This document shows positions 10,174 through 12,405 of a stretch of DNA of 64,000 nucleotides, in pieces. A program made the translations under genes and the position numbers. This stretch comes from an uncultured Acidobacteriota bacterium. GTDB lineage: Bacteria > Acidobacteriota > UBA6911 > RPQK01 > JAPXNP01. The stretch is from contig CAVZRV010000011.1 of assembly GCA_963777605.1 (NCBI GenBank), positions 288,001-352,000 on the forward strand, given 5' to 3'. Each line of letters starts with the position of its first letter. Positions within the stretch are counted from its first letter, which is position 1. The notes under the pieces were generated by a model. That model searched no databases. It was not told the origin of the DNA and was given only the letters and a program-made list of their open reading frames with translations.

Positions 10174-10290
10174 AACTTCAATCTGGATGAGTTGAACGAC
10201 CTGGACGATATGGACGCGTCTGAACGGAGATTCGGGCGAGCGGTAGAACTCAGAAGCCGTGGCTCTCGGCTGGATCCTGGATACCCCGAT

Positions 10291-10316
10291 TTCAGAACGC
10301 GAGTGTCAGCGAGCGC
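10291..10316 (+). repeat. REP-like element, left arm of an inverted pair
   Basis: TTCAGAACGCGAGTGTCAGCGAGCGC is 25/26 identical to the reverse complement of 12267-12292. Confidence 0.75.
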
Positions 10317-10410
10317 GGCTCCGGACGATGGTAAGTCACCGAAGTGCTGCCGGAGGCCGGAACCGCGGGATGGAGTCAAGATCCAGGATTGGCAATGGAT
10401 GAGAGTTCGG

Positions 10411-12262
10411 CTAGGGGTAGGGATAGCGGTTGGTCCGCTACCCCTCCCTCCGAACCCGGCGTCGGGTTCTCCCGGACCGGGCTCTCCAGTTGGTGGTTCA
10501 CCTCGAAGAGGATTGAGTGGCCGAGTCGTAGGCTGCAGTCAGGGAGAACAGCCTGCGCTCGCGGAAATAGGCGTTGGGCCAGCGTTGGTAGTCGGCACCC
10601 CGCGCTCGTCCGCGGAGACCGTGGCGTTTGCGAAGAATGGCTCGGAGCCGTCCGCGCACCCAGATATCGACTTGCTCAAACGTACGGCGGTTACTGTGTT
10701 TGTAATAGCCAAACCAGCCCCGCAGTCGCAGATTCACAAGTCGGATGATCGCGTCCAGACTCCGCCCATTCGCCCGCTTGGTCAGCGGCTTCAGATTGGC
10801 GCGAAGCTTCTGCATGCTCTTCTTCCGAGGATACTTGACCAGCCGCGGCAGTCCGGACCTGCCTGCTTGAAAGTGGTACCCCAGGAAGTCAAACCCGTCC
10901 TCGTGAAGATCCACGATTCGGGTCTTCTCCGGATGCAATTCCAGCCCCACCGCCTCCATCCACTCCGCCAGCAGTCGCCACGCCCGGCGGGCTTCCTGCT
11001 CGCTTCGGCATAGGATCACCAGATCATCGGCATACCGGATCATCACGAAACCGGCTTGCTCCATCCGGTGGTCCAGTGGATTGAGATAGACGTTGGCCAG
11101 TAGTGGACTGATGACCGCCCCTTGCGGACAGCCTTCCTCCGGCGTCCAGTGCCGCAGCGCCTCGAAGATCTCCTGTTTCAGGAAAGCCTCGAGCAACTCC
11201 AGCACGCGTCCATCCGCCACTTGTCCCTGGATCTCCTCCCGAAGCCGGGTGTGGGAGATTCGGTCAAAGTAGCTGCGGATGTCCGCATCGACCACCCAAT
11301 AGTGGCCGCTCTGGATCGTCTGCTGCACCTGCCGTAAGGCATCCTTGCATCCGCGCCCCGGACGAAAACCCAAAACTTCGCACGGCGAACGTTTCCTCAA
11401 AGATCGGTTCCAATACATTGCGTAGTGCCGTCTGCACTACCCGATCCCGCACCGTCGGAATCCCCAGCGGCCGCTTCTCGCGGCTGCCCGGTTTGTCGAT
11501 ATAGCTTCGACGGATTCCCTGCGGGCGGTAGGTCCCGTTCTTGAGGCTGTCGTGCAGCCGTTCCAGTTCCTCGTCCAGGCGCTTGTCGAACTGCTCGACC
11601 GTGACATGGTCCACTCCCGCCGCTCCCCGGTTGGCCTTCACTTTCGCAAAGGCCGCCCCCAAGTTGCGTCGACCGTAGACCTTGTCCATCAGGCTGAACC
11701 AGGCTCCTCCTTTCACTCCCGTTTCCAGGGCCTTCAACATCCGATCCGTCCATACGCTGCGTTCCGCCCAGTCCCACCGGGACCCGGCTTCTCCGACTTG
11801 TTTAGTCTCAGACACTGCCGTCGGTTGCTCTTCGCTGCCCATGTCGTCTCGTCTCCACCTTCCTGTCCCCCTTCGCTCCAGTCCCATTACAGGACCTTCA
11901 TCACTACTATGAGGACTCGGACTCCTGTCCGACCCTCTCCCGGGTGGGCAGGTCTCCCCACGCTCGCGTCGCATTGCCTTCTGTCGCCGTTCCGTCTCCA
12001 ACCACGCCATGTCCCGCCCTTCTCTCTTTGACAGCTACCCATATAGAGGAAGAACCGTCCTTTCGGATCAGGCTTCGCCATTCCACTGCAGGCTCGCCCA
12101 GACACATCGCCGAATCGAGTTCCTCGCGTACGGACCGGTGACTCACCTCCTGTGCCCCCCACCCCGTCTCACGACGGCGCAGTAACATTCGGTTACAGGC
12201 CCGGAGAGCTCTGGCCTGGGAGGGACTTTCACCCTCCTGACAATGCGCGCCTGTGGGCGCGC
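10411..12262 (-). mobile_element. Group II intron (IIB-like), 1852 nt, RT-encoding
   Basis: 5' end GCGCGCCC...GGGTGAAAGTCCC. EBS1 GGTAGC (12039-12034) pairs with the exon end GCTACT. D3 lies near 11870-11916. D5 is GAGCCCGGT...ACGCCGGGTTC. D6 has the bulged A 8 nt from the 3' end (...CCCTACCCCTAG). Confidence 0.9.
10498..11842 (-). CDS. ltrA: Group II intron reverse transcriptase/maturase, no En domain; +1 frameshift at about 11365-11368
   Basis: VKANRGAAGVD, KRPLGIPTVRDR, (S)FGF/RPGR, DADIRSYFD, PQGAVISPLLAN, RYADD, GFDFLG, X domain LRGWFGY. Removing one T from TTTT restores SFGFRPGRGC. Confidence 0.9.
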
Positions 12263-12266
12263 AGTA

Positions 12267-12292
12267 GCGCTCGCTCACACTCGCGTTCTGAA
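12267..12292 (-). repeat. REP-like element, right arm, abutting the intron 5' splice site
   Basis: Minus strand TTCAGAACGCGAGTGTGAGCGAGCGC; ends 4 nt from the intron start. Confidence 0.75.
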
Positions 12293-12405
12293 CACCGGCC
12301 GAGTGCCAGGTCCGGTCTCCGCCCGGCCCAGTTTCACTCTCTGAAGATCCGTACAAGGGCGCGGGGGCGGGGCTGACCGCAGCGAAGAGCGGACCATCTC
12401 CCGAG

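Follow-up and report, generated by a model that had tools for sequence, protein, structure and literature searches.

The textbook group II intron carries a purine, γ, in J2/3 (the segment that joins domain II to domain III) and a pyrimidine, γ′, at its end. Reviews give the rule for the two ends as 5′GUGYG...AY3′, and the exceptions listed in the available passages of a 2015 review are shifted splice sites (PMC4424553). In class C (IIC) introns γ-γ′ is formed by the J2/3 base and the last base, A287-U412 and A327-U638 in the examples at hand (PMC3669008, PMC10733145). Here we describe a group II intron that begins GCGCG and ends AG, in a 64,000-nucleotide stretch (hereafter the window) of contig CAVZRV010000011.1, positions 288,001 to 352,000, from an uncultured Acidobacteriota bacterium. 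Very probably it belongs to a genuine lineage of retromobile bacterial group II introns with IIC-like habits, in which γ-γ′ has switched from A-U to C-G. The intron would end in AG because the pair that selects the 3′ splice site has been switched, and a sub-lineage that includes this genome's copies would later have changed nucleotide 2 from U to C, giving GCGCG, together with two changes in the ε′ loop of domain I (D1).

The lineage resembles the IIC introns of O. iheyensis, G. stearothermophilus (GsI-IIC) and E. rectale in having an intron-encoded protein (IEP) without an endonuclease domain, but known IIC examples have A at γ and a U end, whereas here γ is C and the end is G. A natural deviation from AY at the 3′ end is likewise found in RmInt1 (class D/IIB3), which ends in CC and has G at γ (PMC4238363); that intron keeps a purine in J2/3 and a pyrimidine at its end, whereas our lineage inverts the two. 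In the sections of the RmInt1 study on which we draw, γ is described as a purine, A-U and G-C are equally common in nature, and γ-γ′ mutants that keep the pair are milder than those that break it (PMC4238363). Starts other than GUGYG have also been described, namely GCGCG in degenerate mitochondrial introns of the annelid Travisia, which keep AY (PMC8924214), and UUGCG...GU in one bacterial intron, UHB.I2 (PMC7923331). These resemble the present intron in their starts, but the available text of those papers reports neither a change at the partner position nor an AG end. The full-text literature that we searched contained no report of a C-G γ-γ′ pair or of a group II intron with an AG end; the database of bacterial group II introns (Dai 2008; Candales 2012) and supplements lay outside that search and may list some. 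New here, as far as that literature goes, is the C-G γ-γ′ pair with an AG end, while γ-γ′ pairing itself and other non-consensus ends were already known.

The intron and its boundaries

The intron occupies 12262..10411 on the minus strand and is 1852 nt long, with GCGCGCCCACAG as its first and CCCUACCCCUAG as its last letters. The source genome (53 contigs, 6.73 Mb) contains four near-identical copies, the window copy and L002, L003 and L004. When the four are aligned with 100 nt of flank, the block common to all is T|GCGCGCCC...CCCCUAG|C, that is, T|GCGCG...CCUAG|C, and the flanks are otherwise unrelated, having only the flanking T and C in common. The insert cannot be slid either way, because the preceding T differs from the last base G and the following C differs from the first base G. 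The window copy interrupts a host repeat, empty paralogous copies of which (L007, L018) read ...GCGCTACT|CC(C/T)GAC... and align without a gap across the junction. Four copies with the same ends and the gap-free empty repeats thus fix the boundaries exactly where an earlier note on this DNA, made from the sequence alone, had put them (12262 and 10411). The parts of the intron are as follows.

10411..12262, minus strand: whole group II intron, window copy, 1852 nt; decayed member of a four-copy family, from copy comparison and empty sites
12258..12262, minus strand: 5′ end GCGCG; nucleotide 2 is C (12261), U in 51/51 outgroup rows
12181..12190, minus strand: 5′ strand of an internal loop in D1 (GAAUGUUACU); U12184 in place of the usual A; every GCGCG member has this U, while L059 has A
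12152..12162, minus strand: 3′ strand of the same D1 internal loop; ε′ is G12155-C12154, and G12156 replaces an A invariant in 63/63 outgroup rows
11917..11919, minus strand: J2/3, CGA (C11919-G11918-A11917), with γ = C11919; flanked by covarying helices of domains II and III (DII, DIII)
10498..11842, minus strand: frame of the intron-encoded reverse transcriptase (RT)/maturase; Pfam RVT_1 1.3e-42, GIIM 2.4e-14; split in this copy by an extra G at 11371-11369
10452..10484, minus strand: domain V (DV), from the fold; distal pair C10475-G10463 flipped relative to G-C in 69/69 outgroup rows; the private C10464 breaks the neighbouring pair
10411..10451, minus strand: domain VI (DVI), from the fold and the RF00029 alignment; bulged branch A 10418, terminal AG 10412-10411, γ′ = G10411

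The ribozyme has the layout of a group II intron, with D1-DIII in about 410 nt, the RT frame in domain IV (DIV), DV at 10484-10452 and DVI at 10451-10411; DV, which marks such introns, carries an AGC triad and a 2-nt bulge and is followed by a DVI with a bulged A. This A, which the earlier note had placed 8 nt from the end, is seen in the DVI fold as A10418, the eighth base from the intron end, and would be the branch point. At the gathering threshold, the Rfam search of the whole window gave no match. With a relaxed cut-off, RF00029 (DV-DVI) gives 35.9 bits for 10486..10411 (gathering threshold 40), the shortfall being due in part to a DV mismatch private to this copy, and the intact copy L002 reaches 42.9 bits against the same threshold; both matches end on the terminal G. 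We note that the DV loop of the intron family (10484-10452 and relatives) has 5 nt, GAGAA or GAGAU, versus the GNRA tetraloop of the Rfam consensus. The frame in DIV encodes a reverse transcriptase and a maturase (X) domain, with YADD present and no endonuclease domain (Pfam: RVT_1 and GIIM only), and the protein ends about 35 aa past the X domain.

The γ-γ′ pair and the clade that carries it

We aligned D1-DIII of ten sequences, L002 and nine relatives at 50-61% RT identity, and obtained an RNAalifold consensus of 100 pairs, 66 of them with compensatory changes. Between the closing helix of DII and the helix of DIII, both of which covary, the J2/3 trinucleotide reads CGA in L002 and AGA in every relative of this set. 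Because the trinucleotide is set by these covarying helices and has the γ-G-A layout of J2/3 in P.li.LSUI2 (A420-G421-A422; PMC6224600), we assign γ to C11919 and γ′ to G10411, in agreement with the earlier note, which had read J2/3 as CGA and C11919 as the complement of the terminal G. Pairing of C11919 with G10411 would place the 3′ splice site, as the covariation suggests.

The 90 loci other than the genome's own copies were mapped on profile hidden Markov models of the ribozyme. J2/3 is readable in 74 relatives and is AGA in 67, CGA in five (L056-L059 and L105), GGA in one (L104) and ACA in one (L096). Both γ and γ′ can be read in 55/90, of which 52 are A-U, two C-G (L058, L059), one G-C (L104) and none mismatched; the A-U total comprises 49 automatic calls and three made by eye (L027, L030, L034), where an indel in the DVI tail had misled the automatic call. 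The earlier note had suggested such a tabulation of intron ends against γ and had named CGA with an AY end as the combination that would speak against it; the 55 doubly readable relatives include no such case. L105 has CGA and, by eye, ends ...CUCCUACCUUAG|CC (...CCUUAG|CC). Since it is sister to the AGA/UAU introns L111-L113 (support 100), the C-G state probably arose in it a second time. L096 has changed the conserved G of 'GA' in J2/3, yet its contig keeps an open frame of 474 aa and the usual ...UAU end.

An RT tree (a quick IQ-TREE run, LG+G4) covers 76 of 94 rows; WIN (the window copy), L004 and L025 were omitted by choice, a further 14 rows because no open frame with ADD reached 330 aa, and another 4 because their blastp coverage fell below 330 aa. 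Rows L002, L003 and L056-L059, which have C at γ, form one RT clade (SH-aLRT 99). The four diverged members, L056-L059, stand at 70-77% RT identity, and open frames of 462, 450 and 468 aa are present in L057, L058 and L059, respectively. Within the C-G clade the ratio of nonsynonymous to synonymous substitution rates (dN/dS) is 0.09-0.21, indicating purifying selection, with dS near saturation. In place of the 3′ consensus AY, all four own copies, L058 and L059 end in AG, and in place of the 5′ consensus GUGYG, the four own copies, L057 and L058 begin GCGCG, where relatives have GUGCG or GUACG. L059, which combines GUGCG with CGA...UAG, is thus an intermediate form.

The canonical introns of the same family (L021 and L025 in a metagenome-assembled genome of Planctomycetota, L029, L032 and about 60 metagenomic loci) have ribozymes that can be aligned with ours over D1-DIII and DV-DVI and RTs 50-61% identical to those of this lineage. 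They share its EBS1 loop (exon-binding site 1), its DVI tail CCCUACCCCUA-N and the +1 C, and most of them sit directly after a hairpin, but they read GUGCG / AGA / ...UAU, as opposed to G(C/U)GCG / CGA / ...UAG in this lineage, and lack its flipped DV distal pair. All relatives in reference genomes (at most 61% RT identity) are likewise GUGCG / AGA / ...UAU. A scan of reference genome contigs yielded only five relatives, the best at 59%, and a sample of 401 genomes of the phylum gave none above 61%. In the protein database about 25 clusters at 68-88% identity make up a closer sub-clade, after which identity drops to at most 62%, so the sub-clade is not a singleton. The metagenome scan gave 78 loci, and L022-L024 and L037-L055 (at most 45% identity) were left untabulated.

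The state of the copies bears on whether this form is alive. L002 and L003 have intact 503-codon RT frames with YADD and are about 99.9% identical, with 2 differences in about 1850 intron positions. Three defects are private to the window copy: its RT frame is split by an extra G in the GGG run 11371-11369, one of its DV pairs is broken by C in place of G at 10464, and C also replaces G at 11946. Copies on environmental contigs are free of all three changes and stop at the same two ends. Because the GC...AG form is present at four different sites and L002 and L003 are near-identical with intact frames, the family is, to judge by its copies, recently mobile, with the window copy a recently decayed member that could at best be mobilised in trans by the intact ones. 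We note that environmental contigs from four DNA runs contained no intron-less allele of the window locus (joint 10410 to 12263), and that a single joint from 10594 to 12178 (side 24, on one contig) is too weak to be called a derivative lacking the open reading frame; the contigs also include a ~93% relative. The 14-mer of the ligated junction has 0 exact matches in the genome, and its 86 places with at most two mismatches, against 48 for a reversed control, are uninformative.

Could the unusual ends nevertheless be an artefact or an accident? A canonical-looking GUGUG (12280-12276) sits 18 nt upstream of the proposed start and might be the true one, or the true end might be an AY, in which case GC...AG would reflect misannotation. 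However, these 18 nt (12280-12263) are missing from the other three copies and run uninterrupted through the empty repeat copies, the GUGCGCC of relatives aligns with GCGCGCC at position 1, and the pairing of the 5′ exon with EBS1 stops at 12263. We therefore reject GUGUG at 12280, which belongs to the repeat element, as the intron start, and consider misplaced boundaries barely conceivable. Random damage in a dead intron copy, which would make the odd ends functionally meaningless, has in its favour that the window copy is damaged (its RT frame is split by the extra G and a DV pair is broken by C10464) and falls below the Rfam threshold, and that L004 is also broken; yet the same ends are found in the intact L002 and L003 and in relatives of 70-74% RT identity with open frames, the clade has a dN/dS of 0.09-0.21, and the defects of the window copy are its own. 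Decay is, accordingly, a highly improbable account of the ends, though slightly less so than wrong boundaries. A further explanation grants that the ends are real but treats the C in J2/3 and the terminal G as neutral, the 3′ site being chosen by EBS3-IBS3 (IBS, intron-binding site) and the distance to the branch point alone. The switch inside the clade is indeed a single evolutionary event, the portion of the P.li.LSUI2 study at hand reports that γ-γ′ is not engaged in the crystal form that precedes the second step (PMC6224600), and RmInt1 mutants that keep the pair still lost some activity (PMC4238363). Against this, γ is not a free position (A in 67/69 outgroup rows), all three departures from A-U (in the clade, in L104 and probably in L105) are complementary, none of the 55 readable loci is mismatched, and pair-breaking RmInt1 mutants are the more defective in the second step (PMC4238363). 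We regard coincidence as unlikely, though less remote than the other two.

Several observations nonetheless weigh against a functional lineage with a switched γ-γ′ pair. Besides the frameshift and sub-threshold RF00029 score of the window copy, L004 carries three 1-nt deletions and two in-frame stops (one TAG, one TAA). L056 is cut by contig ends and has an open frame of only 355 aa, and the 3′ end of L057 is aberrant, in that the 3′ strand of DVI (L057:1822-1900) stops at CCCUAC and gives way to unrelated sequence, a sign of truncation or else of a joint made in assembly. The 52 A-U rows include many near-copies, which are hence not independent, the boundaries of L058, L059, L104 and L105 come from homology without empty sites, and the evolutionary events are few, one γ-γ′ switch in the clade, perhaps one in L105, and one G-C in L104. 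A search for RNA runs that contain the sequence yielded none, and splicing at the GC...AG sites is itself deduced from DNA insertion boundaries and comparison alone. That the lineage functions is suggested by copy number, intact frames, selection and compensated changes. The earlier note's view that this is a functional lineage rather than decay or error accords with the covariation of γ with the intron end, the intact copies at several sites and the purifying selection on the clade.

A natural mobile lineage with an inverted pair would mean that γ-γ′ is read as a pair and not as particular bases, a reading supported by an intermediate that still exists (GUGCG...AG) and by one or more probable independent origins, and that a group II intron ending in AG is viable in nature. 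In practice, pipelines that find intron ends by GUGYG and AY, together with the Rfam DV-DVI model, would misplace or under-score such introns. The intron also has the same four terminal letters as spliceosomal GC-AG introns, on which the earlier note had remarked in speaking of spliceosome-like termini. Group II introns and the spliceosome have a common active-site chemistry (PMC4424553, PMC6224600), and the review states that a spliceosomal equivalent of γ-γ′ has yet to be reported (PMC4424553). The letters are alike, but the likeness is nominal, as recognition in this lineage would be by an intramolecular C-G pair.

Linked changes at the 5′ end and in the ε′ loop

We screened all columns, without prior choice of position, for those that are at least 93% conserved in 51-69 outgroup rows and changed in every clade member, leaving WIN, L003, L004 and L025 out of the clade screens as near-duplicates or damaged copies. 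Over the whole clade the screen returned γ, A in 67/69 outgroup rows and here C, and one pair in the distal stem of DV (window 10475/10463), G-C in 69/69 outgroup rows and here C-G. Restricted to the GCGCG members, it returned nucleotide 2 (U in 51/51 outgroup rows, now C), model position 79 (A in 59/63, now U; window 12184) and model position 107 (A in 63/63, now G; window 12156), at all three of which L059 is ancestral. Nucleotide 2, these two loop positions, γ and the DV pair are the only returns. In a control screen of ten other clades, 0-6 columns had changed, mostly pairs that compensate within helices. The number of private changes, which we had tried as a signal, is therefore ordinary and was rejected, since 0-6 near-invariant columns change in other clades too; their location alone is informative. 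That the DV pair has been flipped from G-C to C-G, and not broken, points to selection on the RNA.

The location of these changes is suggestive. Intron G3 and C4 are able to form ε-ε′ with G12155-C12154, and at ε′ (model positions 108-109) the readable GUACG relatives carry GU, not GC (4/4). Model position 107 (G12156) is what we take to be the λ position of ai5γ, and the flipped DV distal-stem pair is presumably the site of λ′. The λ-λ′ contact connects ε-ε′ to the distal stem of DV, according to the review passages available (PMC4424553). A simple extension of the ε-ε′ helix to nucleotide 2 was considered and rejected, as the antiparallel register sets nucleotide 2 opposite model position 110, not 107.

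It is possible, although we hold it to be distinctly less likely than not to be correct, that the lineage represents a stepwise, compensated rewiring of the contact network of the ribozyme active site. In a first step, common to the whole clade, γ-γ′ would have gone from A-U to C-G with the flip of one DV distal-stem pair; in a second step, confined to the GCGCG members, nucleotide 2 would have gone from U to C, with A to G just 5′ of ε′ and A to U across the loop, in its other strand. Should the co-changes arise from direct contacts, nucleotide 2 would be expected to make a specific base-base interaction with the ε′/λ loop (U2/A changing to C2/G), which would lie outside the standard list of group II tertiary contacts. 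The lineage would then offer a natural group II model for a terminal AG read by an active-site nucleotide. A comparison with the spliceosomal ACAGAGA box is named as missing in the 2015 review, as far as its available text goes (PMC4424553). The linkage of nucleotide 2 to two bases of the ε′/λ loop that are invariant in 51-63 others also supplies a hypothesis, open to mutation, on how the first intron nucleotides are held. Separately, we note that the near-identical L082, L085 and L087 have U at model positions 79 and 110 and keep GUGCG, which hints that the two D1 loop strands also covary with each other.

Exon recognition, insertion sites and class

The elements that meet the exons, and the host repeat around the window copy, are as follows.

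12263..12267, minus strand: IBS1, CUACU, the five terminal bases of the 5′ exon; pairs with AGUGG
12083..12087, minus strand: true EBS1, AGUGG, in the loop of hairpin 12097-12072; pairs with CUACU|; position supported in 43/53 loci
12034..12039, minus strand: GGUAGC, not EBS1; the GGGUAGC motif is also present where 5′ exons end ...CACUC, ...GGCUA, ...GCACG and ...AACCA
10410, minus strand: first 3′ exon base, C, the presumptive IBS3; C in all 4 own copies and 47/61 relatives
12263..12400, minus strand: 5′ half of the host repeat, a ~270-bp palindromic element; from repeat comparison and fold
10250..10410, minus strand: 3′ half of the same ~270-bp element; from repeat comparison and fold

We searched D1 for segments complementary to the last exon bases. 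In 43/53 loci the segment at one model position (about 177) matches the exon end over 5 bp or more, and there it covaries with the exon, as in GAGUGA with ...CACUC|, UAGCCA with ...GGCUA| and CUUCUU with ...AAGAAG|. The covariation shows that EBS1 at this position (AGUGG) recognises the 5′ exon through IBS1 in both splicing and reverse splicing; AGUGG makes five pairs at the site of L002 (CUGCU) and five at that of L003 (CCAUU), and fails at -2 at that of L004. The earlier note had placed EBS1 at GGUAGC (12039-12034). This assignment is ruled out, because relatives whose 5′ exons differ widely share the loop motif GGGUAGC and the covarying segment lies elsewhere; with it falls the note's argument from EBS1 for the 5′ boundary. 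The GGGUAGC loop (window 12050-12025, UAUAUGGGUAGCUGUCA), constant in the family regardless of the exon, may by eye be α′, with GCAAC facing GUUGC in L029 and AGCGUG facing UACGCU in L032; GGGUAGC is also complementary to CUACCC of the 3′ strand of DVI. A search for an EBS2-type pairing gave, as its best consistent site, 11/50 in a variable insert, against 40/50 for the EBS1 control, which is weak evidence of absence.

With respect to class, the nearest solved RTs are IIC enzymes (6ar1, 224 bits; 7uim, 208 bits; 5hhj, 178 bits). A GC-rich hairpin lies 1-6 nt before the insertion site in 31/46 distinct 5′ flanks of relatives, against 4/40 control windows (L021, L029, L058, L059, L072 and L128 are examples), and these hairpins have no T-run after them. 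Insertion downstream of a stem-loop is ascribed to class C alone in the passages at hand of the 2015 review (PMC4424553). Among the genome's own copies, L004 has a hairpin and L003 a 4-bp stem, and none is evident at the window copy or L002. Rfam models of D1-D4 gave nothing at the gathering score in nine loci, the best being RF02003 at 32.2 of 49 bits, and a plasmid annotation consulted for class assignment offered only the generic name 'ltrA', at a best identity of 50%. The family looks IIC-like, but we do not file it as class C, because no D1-D4 model reached threshold and there is no clear hairpin at the window copy and L002.

Near position 2457 of L080, a ...CCCCUAU end is followed by 4 nt (CUA + G) and then by a GUGCGCU start, and the contig carries two DV-DVI matches, which suggests tandem or nested intron copies. 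The ~270-bp host element, of which L007:1339-1609 is an empty copy and for which the window search gave no Rfam match, has 53 full or partial matches in the genome and may be either a MITE or an RNA gene. Its fold as single-stranded DNA contains a 26-bp stem (dG -64.9 kcal/mol, z -5.9), and the intron is inserted 4 nt 3′ of its 5′ arm.

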